Part shown: piece by piece, positions 57,787 to 64,000 of the stretch
Layout: each line of letters opens with the position of its first letter
Numbering within the stretch: position 1 is the first letter of the stretch
Source of the DNA: a virus
Strand: one strand, 5' to 3'
Length of the DNA: 64,000 nucleotides
IMG/VR virus record: IMGVR_UViG_3300025834_000005
Notes under the pieces: generated by a model
Seen by the model: the letters and a program-made list of their open reading frames with translations, nothing else
The model's database searches: none
Told to the model about the DNA's origin: nothing
Program-made: the position numbers and the translations under genes

Positions 57787-57950
57787 AATATTGCGGAACG
57801 CACGTCCCTATCAACGTGGCTAAAGTAAATGAATGGGGAATTATAGAGATTTCTACAGGTAACGCAGCCATCTCTTAATAGTGAAGTTGTTCTAACTCGT
57901 CGTTGAGGACAGCCTTTAATAATAAAGGGTTGGGCAAATAGTTATGGATA

Positions 57951-57980
57951 ATAAGCCTGTAGTGTTACTTACAGGCTTAT
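57951..57980. terminator. bidirectional terminator between convergent genes
   Basis: ATAAGCCTGTA / TACAGGCTTAT 11-bp stem, T-rich on the + side. Confidence 0.65.
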
Positions 57981-58477
57981 TTCTTTTTATATAATATACT
58001 GTTAGATATCTCGATCAAATCAGAAGTGTGAATCTTTGACATAACGTCTTTCCGATCACTACGCTGATATTTGTAATTGAATTCTGGCGTTGGTTTGAAT
58101 TCGTCAAATACTTTCTCTTTCATATATTTCTGTAAAGCATATTTACCAACAATGATAAATGAATCCTTTTGTTCGAATGCGAAAAAATCAGCCTTACCAT
58201 ATGCCCATCCTTCAAAGCCTCCAACATTTTTAAATTCAATATAGTGAATAGTTTCGTCAACATCTTCATCTGATCTTAAAGTTTTCTTCATACTTTTAAC
58301 ATCAAATAATAGTCTGCATTGTTGTGGCGTACCAAAATACAGATGCACGCCAACATCCCAATGCTCTTTCATGTCCTGATAAGGTGTTGATTTAAAAGCT
58401 GTTTTAAATAATTTAGCAAACTCAATTTCACATGGCGTTGCATTTGCAAAACATCTATCAATTTCGTCTTGTAGCAT
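57977..58477 (-). CDS. PD-(D/E)xK nuclease-like protein (putative), 166 aa
   Basis: LLFDVKS ... IEFKNV gives D-x22-ExK spacing; divergent from cas3; TATCTTTG box on the - strand at 58494..58501. Confidence 0.5.
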   Translation of the reverse strand: MLQDEIDRCFANATPCEIEFAKLFKTAFKSTPYQDMKEHWDVGVHLYFGTPQQCRLLFDVKSMKKTLRSDEDVDETIHYIEFKNVGGFEGWAYGKADFFAFEQKDSFIIVGKYALQKYMKEKVFDEFKPTPEFNYKYQRSDRKDVMSKIHTSDLIEISNSILYKKK

Positions 58478-58518: not shown

Positions 58519-58548
58519 TGTAACCTTTTTTAATCATTTACGTATAAT
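58519..58548 (+). promoter_or_regulatory. phage-type promoter motif
   Basis: copy 58 (TATAAT); 17 nt upstream of the cas3 ATG 58566. Confidence 0.6.
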
Positions 58549-58565
58549 AAAGAAAATATAAAAAT

Positions 58566-60842
58566 ATGTTGTTAGCAAAAAGCACTGGAAATATAACATT
58601 GTTAAGTCATTCCACGTTGGTTTCGCATATATGCGAGAAATTAATAAAAAAAGCCTTAAATGTAAAAGATGATGATCTGATTAAGTCAATTAAAATCGGC
58701 GGATTATTACATGACATAGCAAAAGCTTTGTCTATTTTTCAGAAAATGCTGAAAAAACAAAGGGATGAAGATAGTGCGAAAAATAAATTCAGGCATAATG
58801 AGATAGGTTGGGCATTTTTATACAGTTACTTAAATGTTAACGACAGTATACTGTCGTTGGTACTGGATATGATATACTGGCATCATGGGATATCAAATGA
58901 AATGGGTAAATACACATCAGATGAAATTCTCGATAGTATAGCAGATAAGGACGCTGAAATATTAATAATGAAAAATGTTTTAGTGGAATTACTTGGTGCT
59001 GAATATTTATTATCTGCACCACGAGAAGATATATATGGTAAAAAAACTCCCATATATTACACCCTTGACAATTTGAATGAATTTACAGAAAAATCAATAT
59101 TATGTCGCACGTGCTTAATTTCAGCTGATAGACTTGCATCGAAATTAGAAGAGTCTAAATACGCATATGACATTGATAATGAGATTAATTTAATCATTGC
59201 AAAGGAAACGCCATTCAAAATAACAACCTGTCCGAGTGAATATAATAAGAGCAGATTTGACGCTCAGTTGGAGATAGCAAAAAAATGCTCTAACACAACC
59301 ATTGTCAAAGGCCCTGGCGGTTTCGGTAAAACCTGCGTAGGCTTAATCTGGGCATCTTTAAGCAATAAAAAGGTTATATGGGCATGCCCCAGAAATGGCG
59401 TTGCTGAATCAGCATACATATCATTGAAGAATGAAATAGAGTCATTTGGACTGAATATAAAAATGGAATTATTTCTAACTGGCGAGATAAAAGAAGCTAA
59501 TTATGATATCCAAGAACCCTTTACATCTGATATCATAGTAACGAATATTGACAATTTTCTCAGTCCAACCGTTAGTATGCGTTCAGCTGACCGACTATTT
59601 TTAATTAATAATGCTGATGTTATATTTGACGAATATCATGAATTAACAACAGAAGCCGCATTATTCGCATGTTCCATAAATATCATGCGTCTACGCAACA
59701 TGTTTACAGATTCAAGAACATTATTTTTATCTGCAACACCGATAGCTGTGGAATTTTTATGGAATACTATATCCAGACCCACATTAGTATTACCAAATGC
59801 TGCAACACATTACAAAGCTGCTCATGATCGTAAAGCATTAATTCGAATTACTGATAACTTACCTAAGTTAGAGGAATCAAATACATTATATTTGACAAAC
59901 GCTATTTCAAATGCACAAGATTATAAGGACATGTTTGACTGTAATAGTTTAATACACAGCGGATTCACAGAAGAAGATAAGCATACGAAAATACTTGACC
60001 TATATACTGTATATGGTAAGTCAAGTATTAGAAATATAAAAAAGCCCAATGTTATGGGTACTCGCATCATACAAGCCAGTTTTGATATATCATTTCAAAA
60101 TGTTTCTGAATCAGTTTTATCGCCAGAGGCAACGATGCAAGCATTACCGAGAGGCGAAAGATGGGGCGATTATATCAAACAAGCAATATTTACGACATAT
60201 AACGTTCGTGGTTATGAATCTAAAGCCGAAAATAAAGTGCGTGACATACTATATGAGAAAGACCTTACAGATATATGGTTTGAATATTTGAGACAGTTTA
60301 ATGGTACTCAAATGTCATTTGACGAACTATACTGCGTATATAATGAATACAGTTCAATTCATAAAAAGGAAATTAAGGATTATATACTAAGGAAATATCG
60401 CACAAGCAGAACAATTCTCAGTACGATCTACCCAAAACATTTCAGAAATATTTCAAAAACAGCGATAAAAACAGCTGGAAGTAATAAATTAAGATCAGTC
60501 GGTAACGAAATATTCGTAACAATGCGATATTATAATTCAGATAAATATACCAATCCTATAAGCACAAGAATATATAAATCTATCGATATCGACTTTGATG
60601 AAACCTCAAAAACAAGGACTCAATTAATTCATGCGATGCAAGCAATATCAAAAAGCGGTGACGAAAGGTTTGAATATGAGGAACTTCTAAATAACAAGGA
60701 AAACATGACCTTAGACGCAATCCGAAAATACGGTTTAAAATCAAATACACCATATATAAGGTTTGACCAAGTATATCATCCTGACTACGGCGGTATAAAA
60801 CCAGCACGATTAGAAAATATTTTAAAAAGCTTAAAAAAGTAG
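58566..60842 (+). CDS. cas3: Cas3 HD nuclease / SF2 helicase
   Basis: HD motifs LLSHS, LLHDIAK, RHNEIGW, YWHHG, SADRLAS; helicase motifs GPGGFGKT (I), DEYH (II), SAT (III), IQASFD (V); promoter motif 58519..58548. Confidence 0.85.
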   Translation: MLLAKSTGNITLLSHSTLVSHICEKLIKKALNVKDDDLIKSIKIGGLLHDIAKALSIFQKMLKKQRDEDSAKNKFRHNEIGWAFLYSYLNVNDSILSLVLDMIYWHHGISNEMGKYTSDEILDSIADKDAEILIMKNVLVELLGAEYLLSAPREDIYGKKTPIYYTLDNLNEFTEKSILCRTCLISADRLASKLEESKYAYDIDNEINLIIAKETPFKITTCPSEYNKSRFDAQLEIAKKCSNTTIVKGPGGFGKTCVGLIWASLSNKKVIWACPRNGVAESAYISLKNEIESFGLNIKMELFLTGEIKEANYDIQEPFTSDIIVTNIDNFLSPTVSMRSADRLFLINNADVIFDEYHELTTEAALFACSINIMRLRNMFTDSRTLFLSATPIAVEFLWNTISRPTLVLPNAATHYKAAHDRKALIRITDNLPKLEESNTLYLTNAISNAQDYKDMFDCNSLIHSGFTEEDKHTKILDLYTVYGKSSIRNIKKPNVMGTRIIQASFDISFQNVSESVLSPEATMQALPRGERWGDYIKQAIFTTYNVRGYESKAENKVRDILYEKDLTDIWFEYLRQFNGTQMSFDELYCVYNEYSSIHKKEIKDYILRKYRTSRTILSTIYPKHFRNISKTAIKTAGSNKLRSVGNEIFVTMRYYNSDKYTNPISTRIYKSIDIDFDETSKTRTQLIHAMQAISKSGDERFEYEELLNNKENMTLDAIRKYGLKSNTPYIRFDQVYHPDYGGIKPARLENILKSLKK

Positions 60843-60872
60843 TTGTATATATAAAAATAAGTTTTACCTTTG
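60843..60872 (+). promoter_or_regulatory. host-type promoter in front of cas7-cas5-cas6
   Basis: TTG-N19-TACCTTTG, 37 nt before ATG 60910. Confidence 0.5.
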
Positions 60873-60909
60873 TCGCATAATAATAAATCAAATTTTAATA
60901 ATTTTAAAA

Positions 60910-61980
60910 ATGACAGTAAAAAACATTTTATTTAAAGTCGATCTAATCGGCAATGGTATCGTAAACATGGACTCGAATGAGCAGAAATGGGTTTTTAATG
61001 ATACCGACTCACACCTGAAATCCTTTTATAAAAACACTTCATATGCGAAGAAAAATTTCTACAAAGATGAAAACGGTAAATTGATTTACAAGATCAAGAT
61101 TTCATCTGATTGTCTTAAACACGACATGTATAAGACAGACGTGATCGCACAATCTCCAAAGATCGCTATTGAGGACACAGTGCTTTATGCTTTTATTGCG
61201 TCTCCCATGTCAATTGCCAGAGGCTACCTGTTCGCAAACAAAAAGGAAACGTTAAAGAGACGTGGTGCTCTATGCATTTGTGACGCTGAACAAACCTGTA
61301 ACGCTGTATCGACTATGGAATTCTTTTCCAAATCAGGCGAAAAAACCACAAACGATGGCGACACGGATAAAGCAGATACAACTATCTACAAAAAAGAAAC
61401 TGTTGGGGATATTAAGTATACTACAATCGGAGATATCGACCTATCAGCTTTGCAGTTCATCAGCACCGATCAGGTTTTCGATAGGTTCGCTTTTAATCCT
61501 GATAAATTTTCGATGTATAAATCATTCTTAAGCATGAGAATGAAAAACTTCAACTCTGAATTAGGTTACTACCAACTGAACGGTTCAGCTATTGATATTC
61601 CTGAGTACGGAATTAAGCTTTCAAATGAAAACGTTCTTGATCTTGTTAAAGACACCCTGAAAAAGCTGTTGGCTATTAACATAAAAAGAAAAGGCTCGTT
61701 CGCTAAAGTATCTTCTTTGAAAATTAAACTGGTTGAAAATCCGATTGAAGAATTTTTAACAGGTGACGATAACTGGATTGATTTAAAAAGCTTCGAAGAT
61801 ATCGATAAACTCGATTTTGTTGCTGACGACTTCTACGGCTATGTTGATCTTGCCGAAGCATTGAAACGCAGAGAAGCTATCGAAGAAGCCTTAAGAGCTG
61901 AAAAAGCTAAGGATAAAGCTGAAAAGCTTGATAAAGATTCTAAGAAAGCAGCATCAAAAAAAGCTAAAGATGCCGAGTGA
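60910..61980 (+). CDS. cas7: Cas7-like backbone subunit with Lys/Glu-rich C-terminal tail
   Basis: position in the operon; GNGIVNMDSNE and ISSDCLKHDMYK resemble the Cas7 (Csa2/DevR-type) N-terminal motifs; tail EEALRAEKAKDKAEKLDKDSKKAASKKAKDAE. Confidence 0.55.
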   Translation: MTVKNILFKVDLIGNGIVNMDSNEQKWVFNDTDSHLKSFYKNTSYAKKNFYKDENGKLIYKIKISSDCLKHDMYKTDVIAQSPKIAIEDTVLYAFIASPMSIARGYLFANKKETLKRRGALCICDAEQTCNAVSTMEFFSKSGEKTTNDGDTDKADTTIYKKETVGDIKYTTIGDIDLSALQFISTDQVFDRFAFNPDKFSMYKSFLSMRMKNFNSELGYYQLNGSAIDIPEYGIKLSNENVLDLVKDTLKKLLAINIKRKGSFAKVSSLKIKLVENPIEEFLTGDDNWIDLKSFEDIDKLDFVADDFYGYVDLAEALKRREAIEEALRAEKAKDKAEKLDKDSKKAASKKAKDAE

Positions 61981-62803
61981 GATTAAATGCTTAACTTTAA
62001 AGTTCCGAAACGCTAAACTGTTTCGGAACGATAAAAAATGCCCTGATTATGTATCAGATATCAACGGCATTAGAAAAAGAACCGATGAGCCTCAGTATGT
62101 TGAGCCTATAACTGCTTATCAGGTAGCCAACGTATTACGAACATTATTCGGCGAAAGACCTGTTCCATCATTAAGGAAAGTTTTATTCACTGGTGATAAA
62201 TATTATCATGATAAGGCAAACGAATCATTAATACGTATTGATGGCTATAAACGATTTAATAAAAATAAACAAGAATTTCAGTATGTAACTGAATTAATGT
62301 CAACAAAAAAAATCGTAAGCAATAGCTATAATTCGACGCCAGTTATAACATGGAATATTGTAAAAAGATATGTGGGTGATGAAAACATGGAATGGTTTAT
62401 CGCCGAGCTATCAAGACTTATGATCAATCCTTTGGATAAACCATTTGAAGAGGTTCGTGCTGTATTACTAAACAGCGATTACAATATTCTTGCTACTGGA
62501 CTTAAAGCCAGAATGCTTACAGGTTTAGTTGAGTATATAAAAAATGATAAGATGGCTTATCAGATGACAGCTAAAACAGAAACAGCCTTGATCTATAATA
62601 ATGGTATTGAGAATATTGTTGTTTTAAGCGGAGAGATATTAGTTCCTGTTAGCGATGAAGACCTTGAAAAACTCTCAAAATCAAAGGGTTGTTCAACAAT
62701 TCTCGATGGCGGCTTAGTTTGGATTGACTCGATCAAATCCTATAACTTTGTTTCTGATGATGGCTTTACCAAAGTATGCGACATTTCAACTGAAAAATAT
62801 TAA
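61970..62803 (+). CDS. cas5: Cas5-like subunit (277 aa from ATG 61970; track ORF starts at 61928)
   Basis: position between the cas7-like gene and cas6; N-terminus LTLKFRNAKLFRN...PITAYQVANVLRTLFGE resembles the Cas5 N-terminal strand-helix pattern; 11-nt overlap with the cas7-like gene. Confidence 0.45.
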   Translation: MPSEIKCLTLKFRNAKLFRNDKKCPDYVSDINGIRKRTDEPQYVEPITAYQVANVLRTLFGERPVPSLRKVLFTGDKYYHDKANESLIRIDGYKRFNKNKQEFQYVTELMSTKKIVSNSYNSTPVITWNIVKRYVGDENMEWFIAELSRLMINPLDKPFEEVRAVLLNSDYNILATGLKARMLTGLVEYIKNDKMAYQMTAKTETALIYNNGIENIVVLSGEILVPVSDEDLEKLSKSKGCSTILDGGLVWIDSIKSYNFVSDDGFTKVCDISTEKY

Positions 62804-62806
62804 ACA

Positions 62807-63541
62807 ATGAGATTAAAAGTAGAATTCAATTCGACAACAGAAAGCGTACCCAGCAATCTAAAGCATTTAAATAGCTTTATTCATAGGATTTTGGGCGAAA
62901 ATAACATATACCATAACAAAAGCGGAGACTACAGCATTTCGCATCTATGTGGCGGTAAACTAAGCAAAGATAGATTAACTGTTTCCTTTCCCAATGGTAG
63001 CCCATTTATTATCATAACCTCTGAGGATATGACATTTTTAAATAAGATTATCGTGGGGTTAATGGATGAAAAAAATAAGGATTATGGTTTTGGCGTGACA
63101 TTTAAAAACATGACCTTTATTAATGAGGAATTGTATAATGGATGGAATCACTTCTTTGTGCTATCGCCAATTTTAATTAAAGGACGTGAGGAAAATGACC
63201 CAAGATACATCAATATCCTATCTAAAGATGAATCTGGTAGACATACGGTTATTAATGAGAATTATAAAGACAGACTGCAAAAACAGATCATTCATAAATT
63301 CTCAACAATCGACCCTACCTTAGACTTCTCAGACTTTGAACTGGTTATCAGCGACAAGCTTAAACGTGTGTATAATATCATGGATAAAAATGTTATTAAT
63401 TCAGCCTCTGTGTTTCAATTCAGCGTCAAAACAAATAAAAAGGTTGCTACCATGCTCTACAATATCGGCGTAGGTCAATCAACTAATTCAGGCTTTGGCA
63501 CGATCTATAAAACCGAAAATTATGATCTTTTCAAATTTTAG
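62807..63541 (+). CDS. cas6: Cas6-like crRNA endoribonuclease
   Basis: MRLKVEF... start, C-terminal Gly-rich loop GVGQSTNSGFGTIYK, located immediately upstream of the array. Confidence 0.65.
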   Translation: MRLKVEFNSTTESVPSNLKHLNSFIHRILGENNIYHNKSGDYSISHLCGGKLSKDRLTVSFPNGSPFIIITSEDMTFLNKIIVGLMDEKNKDYGFGVTFKNMTFINEELYNGWNHFFVLSPILIKGREENDPRYINILSKDESGRHTVINENYKDRLQKQIIHKFSTIDPTLDFSDFELVISDKLKRVYNIMDKNVINSASVFQFSVKTNKKVATMLYNIGVGQSTNSGFGTIYKTENYDLFKF

Positions 63542-63550
63542 GAATAAGAA

Positions 63551-63591
63551 AATCATGACAAAAGAACCCCATAATAGCTTTTGTCATGATT
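63551..63591 (+). terminator. hairpin between cas6 and the CRISPR array
   Basis: AATCATGACAAAAG / CTTTTGTCATGATT 14-bp stem followed by TTTAT. Confidence 0.55.
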
Positions 63592-63648
63592 TTATGGATC
63601 AAAATGCGAATGTAACTAACTGTGATAGTCGCATTTGCTGCGAGGTAC

Positions 63649-64000
63649 AGTGGTATATAATTCGATTCTAAAGGGAATCACAACTAATTCATGTGCGGTA
63701 ATGCTGCAAACCAGAGTGGTATATAATTCGATTCTAAAGGGAATCACAACACTTATTGACGAGGCAGATGCAATTGCGACAGTGGTATATAATTCGATTC
63801 TAAAGGGAATCACAACTTCTCATGTATTTATTATCGAAGCCAGACAAGTGGTATATAATTCGATTCTAAAGGGAATCACAACGTGGCATGTAAGATTGCA
63901 GCAGGTAGCTTGAGTGGTATATAATTCGATTCTAAAGGGAATCACAAATAAGCTTCAAAAGTATGATAATGACATTATAGTGGTATATAGTTCAACACCA
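63649..64000 (+). CRISPR. CRISPR array: 36-nt repeat AGTGGTATATAATTCGATTCTAAAGGGAATCACAAC, 30-nt spacers
   Basis: repeats at 63649-63684, 63715-63750, 63781-63816, 63847-63882, 63913-63948 (last base C to A), and a degenerate sixth repeat from 63979 cut by the window end; five unique 30-nt spacers. Confidence 0.95.

Follow-up and report, generated by a model that had tools for sequence, protein, structure and literature searches.

Compact and phage-borne type I systems

Vibriophage ICP1, an ∼125-kb phage that infects a gammaproteobacterium, carries a type I CRISPR-Cas system with Cas3-type interference that is used by the phage itself. This system is of the I-F1 type and includes Cas8f, Cas1, a Cas2-3 fusion, and 28-nt repeats. 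Among known type I systems, the smallest is the I-F2 (I-Fv) variant, represented by that of Shewanella putrefaciens CN-32 (PDB 5O6U, 5O7H, and 9G44). Its effector consists only of Cas7, Cas5, and Cas6, which operate together with Cas3, and both Cas8 and Cas11 are absent. Recognition of the PAM in I-F2 is accomplished by Cas5 alone, and Cas3 is brought in directly by Cas7 (PMC12956352). Compact CRISPR loci without Cas1, Cas2, and Cas4 have also been described in huge phages (Al-Shayeb et al. 2020; PMC7162821).

Here we describe a locus at the end of a 64,000-nt stretch of viral DNA (the window), in which a sequence-only reading had noted a compact type I-like module. We estimate a probability of roughly 75% that this locus is an interference-competent type I module lacking Cas8 and Cas11, that it is carried by an ∼328-kb phage with a probable Bacteroidota host, and that it is part of a large sister branch of I-F2 whose members are almost all associated with phages.

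Organization of the locus

The sequence-only reading had placed ORFs of 758, 356, 277, and 244 aa and an array of 36-nt repeats between positions 58519 and 64000, and we recovered all of these at the same coordinates. The genes cas3 (58566..60842), a Cas7fv-like gene (60910..61980), a putative Cas5fv-like gene (61970..62803), and cas6 (62807..63541) all reside on the + strand. The Cas5fv-like gene is read from the ATG at 61970; the longest ORF begins with a TTG at 61928 and corresponds to 291 aa.

The 5′ boundary of the module neighborhood is a terminator-like hairpin (57950..57981, no strand assigned) with a 13-bp stem and a T-run, where the upstream + strand genes end. Directly upstream of cas3 is a 166-aa ORF on the − strand (57977..58477) that has no functional assignment and no match in Pfam, NCBIfam, PADLOC, or PHROGs. 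This ORF is also present in other copies of the same phage (L042-L044). It is probably not part of the CRISPR system, because different genes occupy this place in the related loci L001, L004, L170, and L171.

A bipartite motif, GTAACCT-N9-16-TACGTATAA, occurs in 63 copies on the + strand and three copies on the − strand. The last + strand copy (58519..58548; TGTAACC...TTTACGTATAAT) ends 17 nt upstream of the cas3 ATG, and its earlier designation as copy 58 of a phage promoter motif agrees with this count, allowing for the stringency applied. Judging from its sequence and position, this copy is presumed to be the promoter of the cas operon, such that the phage's own repeated motif would drive cas3-cas7-cas5-cas6. 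In L042 and L043, an identical variant of the motif, TATAATAAAGAAAA, is located after the array end.

Identification of the Cas proteins

Profile searches uphold the reading of the 758-aa protein as a Cas3 with HD and SF2 helicase domains. The protein matches the Cas3_HD, DEAD, and Cas3-like_C_2 models, and TIGR01596 (cas3_HD) scores 62 bits, which is over its cutoff. The HD nuclease occupies approximately residues 12-192 and the SF2 helicase approximately residues 226-545, and these are followed by a C-terminal domain. No Cas2 domain is detected by profile searches and the HD domain starts at residue 12, indicating that this is a standalone Cas3. The PADLOC Cas3fv model matches residues 168-698 (1.5e-51), and the N-terminal HD part is best matched by Cas3b models (PDLC01761, 3e-29, residues 2-268). 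The only PDB sequence match of the protein is the I-F2 Cas3 chain 9g44_A (4.5e-27). Among 24 homologs with only 25-49% identity, HD residues H15, H49-D50, H77, H106-H107, and D188 are invariant (24/24), as are the helicase motifs GxGKT, DExH, SAT, and the Q/R/R of motif VI (24/24).

The assignment of the 244-aa protein as Cas6 is likewise sustained by TIGR01877 (63.2 bits, over the cutoff of 58.65), by PADLOC Cas6b (2.5e-26), and by the Cas_Cas6_C model. Its C-terminal glycine-rich loop reads GVGQSTNSGFG. Its sequence places this endoribonuclease with the general Cas6/Cas6b group and not with Cas6f.

For the 356-aa protein, a family model, PDB sequence matches, and a predicted structure agree with its proposed Cas7 identity. 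The NCBIfam Cas7fv model NF040577 matches with an E value of 1.2e-22 and a score of 80.7 bits, which is under the cutoff of 200, and the PDB chains 5o6u_C and 9g44_F match at 3e-11. The predicted structure (pLDDT 86.8) gives six top Foldseek matches that are all I-Fv/I-F2 Cas7 proteins (E 2.7e-17 to 7.7e-14), and the next match is a I-C Cas7 (1.3e-7). By Foldseek E value, the model therefore fits Cas7fv better than any other Cas7 protein by approximately ten orders of magnitude. Cas7b models give no significant match in the PADLOC search. The phage protein also has an extra C-terminal segment of ∼80 aa, not present in Shewanella Cas7fv, that closes with a Lys/Glu-rich tail predicted to form a single long helix (residues 314-355). 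This tail is present in 39 of 39 aligned homologs, and no alignment of the protein to Cas7fv extends into it. The sequence-only reading had raised the idea that the tail might take over functions of the missing large subunit.

The 277-aa protein, whose N terminus had been called Cas5-like, has no sequence match in any library searched (Pfam, NCBIfam, PADLOC, and others), and the earlier call is backed by predicted structure. The model (pLDDT 90.9) shows a RAMP core into which a helical domain is inserted at approximately residues 128-200. Foldseek ranks 5o6u_F first (E 9e-4, probability 0.99); this I-Fv Cascade chain of 336 aa is the single structural match behind the Cas5 assignment, and its TM-scores are modest (0.41/0.35). 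Other Cascade and Csm chains match weakly (E 0.03-1). Given the composition of the Shewanella complex, we infer by elimination that chain 5o6u_F is Cas5fv, and on the basis of the model the 277-aa protein is taken to be a Cas5fv-like subunit. In related loci, its gene stays between cas7 and cas6.

The CRISPR array and its spacers

The array (63649..64000, + strand) is composed of 36-nt repeats (AGTGGTATATAATTCGATTCTAAAGGGAATCACAAC) separated by 30-nt spacers, and it runs past the window end. Five repeats that are identical or nearly so lie within 63649-63948, and a sixth copy at 63979 is cut by the end of the window. In the source contig, the array extends to ∼64322 and has 11 repeats in total, the last six of which are degenerate. 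The repeats noted earlier are thus real, but the window shows only about half of the array. Each repeat can fold into a 6-bp hairpin located 5 nt from the repeat 3′ end.

Among assemblies of this phage, spacer 4 is either present or absent, and this internal gain or loss is the only array polymorphism. In a related lineage (L030, L031, L037, and L100), trailer-side spacers are held in common and the spacers adjacent to cas6 differ, which suggests acquisition in trans. Since this phage varies only at an internal spacer and its distal array is degenerate, recent acquisition is seen only in the relatives. The region between cas6 and the first repeat (63542..63648, + strand) is taken as the leader, because the clean repeats of this array and the variable spacers of the related lineage are both at the cas6-proximal end. 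The leader contains a 13-bp hairpin followed by TTT (63552-63590) that could terminate transcription between cas6 and the array, and no clear match to the phage promoter motif is seen in it.

Comparison of the spacers with sequence collections, as had been proposed, returned no protospacer for six spacers in large collections (four of this phage, one of which was also run against a metagenome collection, and two of the related lineage). Searches of INPHARED, the window, and the retrieved related loci with the whole array likewise found none. The spacers are probably directed against competing phages or other mobile elements, or against host DNA.

Distribution of the module and absence of other cas genes

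The module is not the isolated oddity it had appeared to be. Its Cas7 family has more than 190 homologs, and the Cas5-like protein is represented by 539 metagenomic clusters at 50% identity. The four genes, all with intact and syntenic ORFs, and an adjoining array are kept together in ∼40 loci. I-F-like repeats of 28 nt that form a hairpin, together with a 184-aa Cas6, occur in a distant clade of this Cas7/Cas3 family.

The absence of a large subunit and of adaptation genes, proposed earlier, holds for the regions scanned, which cover ∼74 kb of the ∼328-kb genome. Between positions 533 and 58477, 59 ORFs reach a length of 120 aa or more, a threshold larger than a Cas2-sized gene, and none of them belongs to the Cas1, Cas4, or Cas8 families. 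Beyond position 64000 the array continues, and the called genes of the 10 kb that follow it include no cas8, cas11, cas1, cas2, or cas4. In six other annotated phage contexts, no Cas8, Cas1, Cas2, or Cas4 is found within 10 kb of the module.

A model for function and its alternatives

If the module is active, Cas6 would cut the precursor crRNA at the 3′ hairpin of the 36-nt repeat, and the crRNA would probably retain a 5′ handle of ∼8 nt that ends in ...AUCACAAC. By homology with the Shewanella I-F2 Cascade, approximately five Cas7fv-like subunits would coat the 30-nt guide and Cas6 would remain on the 3′ hairpin, and the 5′ handle is presumably capped by the Cas5fv-like protein, whose inserted helical domain would read the PAM. 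Upon R-loop formation, the standalone Cas3 may dock on the Cas7/Cas5 surface without Cas8, as suggested by PDB 9G44, and then shred the target DNA with its intact catalytic motifs. New spacers would enter at the cas6-proximal end, where polarized turnover is seen in the related lineage, via an integrase acting in trans. A host type II system is the leading candidate for the source of Cas1-Cas2, because the length, spacing, and terminal sequence of the repeats match those associated with Cas9.

Some features of the locus would be expected of an ordinary member of the described subtype I-F2 (I-Fv) with nothing new about it: I-F2 proteins are the specific nearest relatives of Cas7 and the Cas3 helicase, the gene order cas3-cas7-cas5-cas6 and the absence of Cas8 and Cas11 agree with that subtype (PMC12956352), and an existing Pfam family, PF28157 (“Cas7fv-like”), already covers these Cas7 proteins. 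However, simple membership is quite improbable. Cas3 lacks the Cas2 fusion of I-F2, no cas1 adjoins the module (window ORFs of at least 120 aa and 10 kb downstream), the 244-aa Cas6 is Cas6b-like whereas that of Shewanella is Cas6f, and the repeats and spacers are 36 and 30 nt rather than 27-28 and 32 nt. In addition, Cas7 falls below the curated Cas7fv cutoff and carries its extra C-terminal helix, and the Cas5-like protein is invisible to all libraries searched, including PADLOC. A chimera derived mainly from type I-B, with loss of Cas8b and only a partial or convergent resemblance to I-F2, would account for the preference of Cas6 and of the Cas3 HD part for I-B models (Cas6b and the Cas3b model PDLC01761), and also for repeats that end in what we take to be typical I-B style, with an 8-nt handle (...ACAAC). 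This origin is unlikely, since Cas7 has no significant Cas7b match and is structurally far nearer to Cas7fv, and since the Cas3 helicase core matches Cas3fv and, among known structures, only the I-F2 Cas3. The 28-nt repeats and 184-aa Cas6 of the distant clade also argue for an I-F2-like ancestor that later exchanged its Cas6 and repeats, rather than for an I-B origin.

A remnant that is decaying or has been repurposed and can no longer degrade DNA, such as a crRNA-guided regulatory binder or a decoy against host CRISPR systems, is a very unlikely reading of the module. The lack of adaptation genes in the regions scanned, the degenerate half of the array, and the spacer searches that found no targets would fit such a remnant, and many huge-phage CRISPR systems have been reported without interference genes, adaptation genes, or both (PMC7162821). 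Yet the nuclease and helicase residues of Cas3 are invariant in 24 divergent homologs, the four ORFs are intact and syntenic in ∼40 loci, five repeats are identical or nearly so, and spacers turn over at the leader end in the related lineage. An origin in bacterial host DNA, such as a defense island or a MAG contig, is hardly credible. Three relatives, the only matches among 185,579 species genomes, do reside in contigs binned to Bacteroidota MAGs, and no virion structural gene is recognizable in the 64-kb window. Against this, the ∼328-kb source contig recurs in at least 13 assemblies and was recovered at nearly identical size in many independent ones, dense small ORFs lie on one strand behind the shared promoter motif, and the surroundings contain phage-type genes (ligases, GP88, and PHROG families). 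The nearest relative of the DNA ligase is that of Cellulophaga phages (46% identity), relatives of the module occur in 32 IMG/VR viral contigs, of which several measure 280-600 kb, and no tRNA or housekeeping genes were found. The earlier claim that the module is phage-borne is thus well founded, and the host is probably a member of the Bacteroidota.

Relationship to known systems

We therefore favor an active, phage-borne module and view it as a divergent I-F2 branch rather than as a wholly undescribed type I architecture. Of the proposal of an undescribed minimal variant, the lack of Cas8 holds in the regions scanned, but a Pfam family already exists for the Cas7 of the module. The observation that it resembles I-F2 without the Cas2-Cas3 fusion or the 28-nt repeat is supported by HMM, PDB, and Foldseek matches and by the array.

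Both ICP1 and this phage encode a type I system with Cas3. The Cas8f, Cas1, Cas2-3 fusion, 28-nt repeats, ∼125-kb genome, and gammaproteobacterial host of ICP1 have no counterpart here. Arrays of type II systems share the 36-nt repeats, 30-nt spacers, 5′ NNTGT start, and 3′ AATCACAAC end. A pattern built from the phage repeat 3′ end and a 66-nt period also retrieved arrays that adjoin Cas9 genes, although the likeness is partly built in because this pattern fixed a 9-nt 3′ end. By hand count, the repeats of L159 (phage type) and L054 are identical at 25 of 36 positions; the short contig of L054 has no cas gene, but the L054 repeat is almost the same as that of L077, which adjoins Cas9. The resemblance is confined to the array, since the type II effector is Cas9, whereas the phage module uses Cascade and Cas3, with processing by Cas6 and no requirement for a tracrRNA.

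As in the huge-phage loci described previously, the module is compact and has no adaptation genes nearby, but the type I example given there is a I-C variant without Cas6 in which another helicase replaces Cas3 (PMC7162821). An I-F2-like architecture is not mentioned in that study, in the 2025 classification text, or in the jumbo-phage surveys consulted; Al-Shayeb 2022 (Cell) lies outside this comparison.

The Shewanella I-F2 system shares with the phage module the set of effector proteins, the gene order, and the lack of Cas8 and Cas11. Its Cas7 and Cas3 helicase are the nearest relatives of the phage proteins in sequence and structure, and its chain 5o6u_F is the best structural match of the helical insertion-bearing Cas5-like model. 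This chain has 336 aa, whereas the phage protein has 277 aa and is unrecognizable by sequence. Moreover, I-F2 systems occur in bacterial islands or plasmids, whereas this module resides in huge phages. Compared with the smallest known type I system, the phage module is thus a distant, unnamed, phage-borne relative with a different repeat type.

Organization and genomic context of the phage cas locus

The four co-oriented ORFs and the repeat array that the sequence-only reading had placed between position 58519 and the end of the window are borne out by ORF calls and a repeat search. All lie on the plus strand: cas3 (58566–60842; 758 aa), a Cas7-like ORF (60910–61980; 356 aa), a Cas5-like ORF (from the ATG at 61970 to 62803; 277 aa), a Cas6 ORF (62807–63541; 244 aa), and a CRISPR array of 36-nt repeats and 30-nt spacers that starts at 63649 and runs past the window end. 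The 277-aa ORF overlaps the preceding cas7 by 11 nt, and the Cas5-like homologs of related loci begin at an ATG equivalent to that at 61970. The interval from promoter to array holds these four ORFs and no more.

A bipartite promoter-like motif, GTAACCT-N9-16-TACGTATAA(C)ATAGAAA, occurs between positions 50 and 58548 of the window, with 63 copies on the plus strand and three on the minus strand. Its usual position is 10–30 nt 5′ of a start codon. The final window copy (58519–58548) immediately precedes cas3, in agreement with the earlier claim that this gene sits directly behind a phage promoter motif, and the variant ...TATAATAAAGAAAA is common to the copies found before cas3 and after the array. 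A generic scan of the region for sigma-70 promoters and terminators gave no excess over shuffled sequences; the phage-specific motif alone is informative. The placement of the module behind this motif, amid small genes with the same motif, suggests that it is expressed within the phage program. Since G+C content is uniform across the window (31%–37%), the module is not conspicuous as a recent import. Just 5′ of cas3, a 166-aa ORF on the minus strand (57977–58477) has no match in Pfam, NCBIfam, PADLOC or PHROGs; its 3′ end meets a strong hairpin at 57950–57981.

The window is a series of small plus-strand ORFs. Recognizable genes encode an ATP-dependent DNA ligase, an RNA ligase, a NUDIX protein, a GP88-like protein, an ion channel (Ion_trans), and three proteins with a GmrSD_N (DUF262) domain. 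Between 533 and 58477, ORFs of ≥120 aa further include a weak DndB-like match, a glucosaminidase, and a HAD_SAK_1 RNA-repair-type domain, and this gene set is rich in accessory genes with a counter-defense look. No tRNAs were found in the window. The 10 kb past the array carry small ORFs, an RNA ligase, a LAGLIDADG-like gene, and a Thg1-like gene. In another assembly of the same phage (L042:15318–18329, 3′ of the array), these appear as a second RNA ligase, a LAGLIDADG-like protein, and a Thg1-like protein of the tRNA-His guanylyltransferase family, which, with the HAD_SAK_1 domain of the window, suggest a set of genes for RNA repair.

An identical Cas6 protein is found on at least 13 contigs; ten are longer than 200 kb. 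Lengths obtained for three of them are 328,334, 328,374, and 328,453 bp, with a recorded maximum of 328,505 bp. This repeated assembly at nearly the same size indicates that the window is part of a reproducible ∼328-kb element, consistent with a complete huge-phage genome. The DNA ligase of the window is 46% identical to those of Cellulophaga phages phi17:2 and phi4:1. Within the ∼74 kb inspected, the assignment to a phage is based on phage-type gene content, with no virion genes among the genes seen. Taken together, these data uphold the view that the module is of phage rather than host origin. Huge phages are known to carry CRISPR systems that have no adaptation genes, and no Cas1, Cas2 or Cas4 was found in the inspected ∼74 kb of this >200-kb genome. 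When 50,697 isolated phage records were searched, the module and a 20-kb stretch (each as DNA) and Cas7 (by tblastn) all gave no match, and thus the system is absent from the cultured phages of that collection.

Cas3 and Cas6 pass curated cutoffs

Cas3 matches the Cas3_HD, DEAD/ResIII, and Cas3 C-terminal domains, and its TIGR01596 score is above the cutoff. Residues 168–698, which comprise the helicase and the C-terminal part, match the PADLOC Cas3fv model (1.5e-51), and the best PADLOC matches of the HD part are Cas3b models. Among all PDB sequences, the sole match is chain A of 9G44, the Shewanella I-F2 Cas3 (4.5e-27). Because the HD domain begins at residue 12 of a 758-aa protein, there is no Cas2 domain. 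The 23 family homologs are about 740–880 aa by stop-to-stop ORF length. All HD and helicase catalytic residues are invariant in the 24-member alignment (25%–49% identity to the query), a degree of sequence conservation that is strong evidence for selection on nuclease-helicase activity.

The 244-aa Cas6 passes the TIGR01877 cutoff. Cas6b models match it at 2.5e-26, and Cas6f models do not match it at all. In the HMM libraries searched, Cas3 and Cas6 are the only two proteins of the module that pass curated cutoffs, and therefore loci of this kind could easily be mistyped or missed.

Cas7 and the Cas5-like subunit resemble I-F2 proteins

The 356-aa protein matches the NCBIfam model for Cas7fv (NF040577) with an E value of 1.2e-22. 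Its score of 80.7 bits lies far under the curated equivalog cutoff of 200, which makes it a relative of Cas7fv and not an equivalog. It also matches the PADLOC Cas7fv and Cas7f models and the Cas7fv chains of 5O6U and 9G44 (3e-11); the PADLOC Cas7b models give no match. A predicted structure (pLDDT 86.8, pTM 0.83, with 39 homologs as input) retrieves I-Fv/I-F2 Cas7 chains as its top six Foldseek matches (E 2.7e-17 to 7.7e-14, TM ≤0.75), followed in seventh place by I-C Cas7 (1.3e-7). No viral structure in BFVD matches at E ≤0.001. The sequence alignment with Cas7fv stops near residue 270. All 39 aligned homologs carry a C-terminal extension, modeled as a single helix (residues 314–355), whose Lys/Glu-rich composition is conserved and whose sequence is not.

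No match to the 277-aa protein exists in Pfam, NCBIfam, PADLOC or PDB, and a profile of 53 sequences found none either. Its predicted structure (pLDDT 90.9) finds as its top Foldseek match 5o6u_F, a 336-aa chain of I-Fv Cascade (probability 0.99, E 9e-4, TM 0.41/0.35). Since that complex comprises Cas5fv, Cas7fv (315 aa), and Cas6f only, we take the 336-aa chain, by elimination, to be Cas5fv. Further weak matches are to other Cascade chains and to Csm chains (E 0.03–1), among which type IV-A3 chains appear at E 0.03–0.3. A helical block at about residues 128–200 is inserted in a beta-rich core, an arrangement that fits a Cas5 with an extra helical domain. On this structural resemblance, we infer that the protein is a Cas5-like subunit. 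Thus, of the four proteins that the sequence-only reading had assigned to Cas families, Cas3, Cas7, and Cas6 are recognized by HMMs, whereas the fourth is matched by structure and not by sequence.

The hallmarks of a type I system are present: a Cas3 with HD and SF2 helicase domains, accompanied by Cas7, Cas5 (by structure only), and Cas6 beside an array. The Cascade genes sum to 877 aa and the whole system to 1,635 aa.

Repeats, spacers, and array context

The array in the window contains five copies of AGTGGTATATAATTCGATTCTAAAGGGAATCACAAC (the fifth ends in A) with 30-nt spacers, and a sixth, diverged repeat that is cut off by the window end. In the ∼328-kb contigs (L043:10843–11516), the array runs on to about 64322, with six increasingly degenerate repeats beyond the first five. 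These distal repeats differ in their 5′ half (AGTGGTATATAGTTCAACACC...). A hairpin and a further copy of the promoter motif lie 3′ of the full array. Between cas6 and the first repeat, a perfect 13-bp hairpin (63552–63590; ATCATGACAAAAG ... CTTTTGTCATGAT) is followed by TTT, and transcription toward the array might be terminated or attenuated there. Neither CRISPR-DR nor any other Rfam family matched the array or leader.

Relatives that form the main clade share 36-nt repeats, 30-nt spacers, and the 3′ end (A/G)AGGGAATCACAAC. The repeats fold into a weak 5–6-bp hairpin located 5–6 nt from the 3′ end, and the stem varies by locus (AUUCC/GGAAU, AUUCU/GGAAU). Repeats of this type may resemble the direct repeats of type VI-B (Cas13b) systems. 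A search of the literature for the repeat 3′ end as text returned nothing relevant. In one related locus (L001:9437–9781; also in L002 and L003), an extra array with the same 36-nt repeat lies between cas3 and cas7, besides the array after cas6.

No protospacer was found in any spacer search, which covered INPHARED, IMG/VR, a metagenome collection, and the fetched loci. None of the five window spacers recurs elsewhere in the window or in the initial set of related loci. The whole array gave chance-level matches against INPHARED (E ≤10), and no match was found in IMG/VR for spacer 1 (as an exact 30-mer) or for spacers 2–4 (with every sixth base free), nor for spacer 1 in the metagenome collection. 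In IMG/VR, the leader-end spacers of two related loci (L030 and L031) match nothing but their own arrays, and comparison of every array with every fetched locus yielded repeat-to-repeat matches only.

Arrays turn over without adaptation genes nearby

Searches of the window (ORFs ≥120 aa), of the 10 kb that follow, and of the surroundings of six annotated related loci found no Cas1. Precomputed Pfam annotation of seven distinct phage contexts shows no Cas1, Cas2, Cas4 or Cas8 within 10 kb. Similarly, no member of the Cas8 or Cas11 families was found in the window (ORFs ≥120 aa) or within 10 kb in the seven phage contexts. The region past position 64000, a possible location for cas1, cas2, cas4 or cas8, has no cas genes in the 10 kb that follow the array. 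The earlier statement that the module has neither a large subunit nor adaptation genes therefore stands for the ∼74 kb inspected and for six other annotated contexts. A small subunit may be produced via internal translation.

Spacer content nevertheless differs between assemblies. Three other assemblies of this phage (L042, L044, and L045) lack the fourth spacer of the window, and this difference is internal and looks more like a deletion than an acquisition. Four assemblies of one related lineage present a different picture (reverse-strand coordinates L030:12726–14479, L031:12726–14265, L037:12727–12894, and L100:1629–3710). Their arrays have trailer-side spacers in common and differ in the spacers proximal to cas6, with internal losses scattered among them, a pattern that looks like the classical signature of polarized acquisition. 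In another phage, represented by two assemblies with identical flanks, the array has ten repeats in one (L004, 12704–13332) and two in the other (L005, 8239–8340), and the shorter array retains the last spacer alone.

Because no integrase gene lies nearby, acquisition of spacers in trans is the most economical reading. We infer that a type II module of the host is the natural candidate for supplying this function. Given leader-end turnover with no integrase in the vicinity, the question of who loads phage CRISPR arrays is now directly testable.

Distribution of the family and a distant clade

More than 190 homologs of Cas7 occur in a metagenomic protein collection. Among the matches listed, all 120 Cas7 homologs are assigned by precomputed annotation to Pfam PF28157, "Cas7fv-like," and any name given by the source is "hypothetical protein." The Cas5-like profile, searched against 1.84 billion proteins, matches 539 clusters (50% identity) at E ≤1e-3 and 275 at E ≤1e-30; the best 150 matches were listed. 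Relatives are found on 32 IMG/VR viral contigs, of which 19 are >60 kb and 12 are 280–600 kb or >120 kb, and on three contigs among 185,579 species-representative genomes, all of them from Bacteroidota MAGs; these are lower bounds, since both scans used a short peptide pattern. The four-gene set was recovered by tblastn at nearly all loci, usually in the order cas3-cas7-cas5-cas6-array, and in some related loci cas3 is placed 3′ of the array. The family is one effector lineage that is apparently specialized for huge phages of Bacteroidota.

A distant clade is represented by three IMG/VR viral contigs (L036, L038, and L040) and by a contig of a Bacteroidaceae MAG (L009, 7610–12824). Cas7 in this clade is 25%–30% identical to the query, and Cas6 is 184 aa. 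The repeats are 28 nt with a strong hairpin and a AAUUGAAA tail (...GTGCGGGAATTGAAA), which is I-F-like, and the spacers are 32–34 nt. Here, an I-F-like array architecture accompanies the standalone Cas3 of the family. Most simply, an ancestor resembling I-F2 gave rise to the family, and an exchange of Cas6 and repeat in the main clade came afterward. The arrangement seen in the distant clade may represent the ancestral condition.

A repeat class shared with type II systems

A metagenome scan for two AATCACAAC ends 65–67 nt apart returned >120 contigs. Six of these (L048, L063, L100, L118, L139, and L159) belong to the Cas7fv-like phage family. Many of the other arrays adjoin large Cas9 ORFs (TIGR01865, E 1e-134 to 2e-290), which places the phage repeat in a 36/30 class (5′ NNTGT ... 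AATCACAAC 3′) that is common to type II. Cas9-adjacent arrays with the 36/30 architecture and the AATCACAAC end include those of contigs L047, L060, L061, L077, L098, and L158. Three arrays (L084, L130, and L141) lie near 420–450-aa TnpB/Cas12f-like ORFs, some on contigs >200 kb. A single 36/30 repeat class thus seems to be used with several types of effector. Type II systems dominate in few phyla, Bacteroidota included (PMC12669027).

These observations can be combined into a single scenario, which we offer tentatively and judge more apt to fail than to hold as a whole. The main clade would have swapped an I-F-like repeat and Cas6f for a type II-like repeat and a Cas6b-like nuclease, the host type II system would write the spacers, and the Cas7 helix would replace Cas11 and Cas8. 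The ancestral repeat would be the 28-nt hairpin repeat with the AAUUGAAA handle retained by the distant clade, and the new array, with its 36-nt repeat and 30-nt spacers, would be writable by the host type II Cas1-Cas2. The conserved Lys/Glu-rich Cas7 helix, which may run along the belly of the complex, would hold the displaced strand in place of the missing Cas11 and Cas8. If this scenario is true, then a phage type I effector uses host type II memories, which would be adaptation in trans across both types and genomes.

Proposed mechanism and comparison with known systems

In the Shewanella I-F2 system, the PAM is sensed by Cas5 alone, and the central docking of Cas3 on the Cas7 backbone and on Cas5 involves no Cas8 (PMC12956352). 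By homology, the phage array transcript would be processed by Cas6, whose cut is predicted to leave an 8-nt AUCACAAC handle. The complex built on each crRNA (30-nt guide) would comprise the Cas5-like protein, Cas6, and about five copies of Cas7. The complex would then locate a PAM-flanked target and form an R-loop, and Cas3 would dock straight onto the complex and shred the target. As a phage CRISPR-Cas3 system of the I-F2 lineage, the module is genuine, conserved, and probably active, and several of its features are distinctive.

The sole mention of a comparable form in the 2025 classification is "a I-F variant intermediate between I-F1 and I-F2." In the literature searched, no paper connects I-F2/I-Fv to huge or jumbo phages. 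The architecture is not described in the I-F2 papers, the 2025 classification, a 2023 survey of rare systems, or recent jumbo-phage surveys, and it may have been described earlier elsewhere. The Pfam family name "Cas7fv-like" shows that the proteins themselves have been seen before. The sequence-only proposal of an undescribed minimal variant therefore survives with regard to the distinct Cas3, Cas6, and array, but not with regard to novelty of the lineage, which is that of I-F2 and has PF28157 as an existing family.

Among other known systems, the I-F1 system of phage ICP1 has Cas8f and an adaptation module, and the phage module described here is unlike it; it is also unlike the I-C variant of huge phages. 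The resemblance to I-B is limited to Cas6 and the HD part of Cas3, and the module has neither Cas8b nor a match to Cas7b. Type IV systems have Csf-type Cas7 and Cas5 and either DinG or no nuclease, and they do not have Cas3. The phage module matches a DinG model marginally (0.0024), but it has a complete Cas3.

The closest relative is I-F2, and the two are proposed, by homology, to work alike. Both have an effector without the Cas8 and Cas11 families. In contrast to I-F2, which encodes Cas2-3f2 and has a 27–28-nt hairpin repeat with 32-nt spacers (PMC12956352), the phage Cas3 has no Cas2 domain and the array is of the 36/30 type. The start of the HD domain at residue 12 and this array architecture confirm the initial suggestion of an I-F2-like module with neither a Cas2-Cas3 fusion nor a 28-nt repeat. 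The phage module further differs in its Cas6, which is of the Cas6b/general type and not Cas6f, in having no adjacent cas1 in the searched regions, and in a Cas7 that scores under the curated Cas7fv cutoff. For editing and regulation, I-F2 is under development as the most compact of the type I tools (PMC11343773, PMC12956352). With an unfused Cas3, another Cas6 and repeat type, and a new appendage on Cas7, the phage systems provide independent Cas8-less solutions to PAM reading and Cas3 recruitment. As a sister branch of I-F2, the phage family is large and diverse, and most of it is unannotated.
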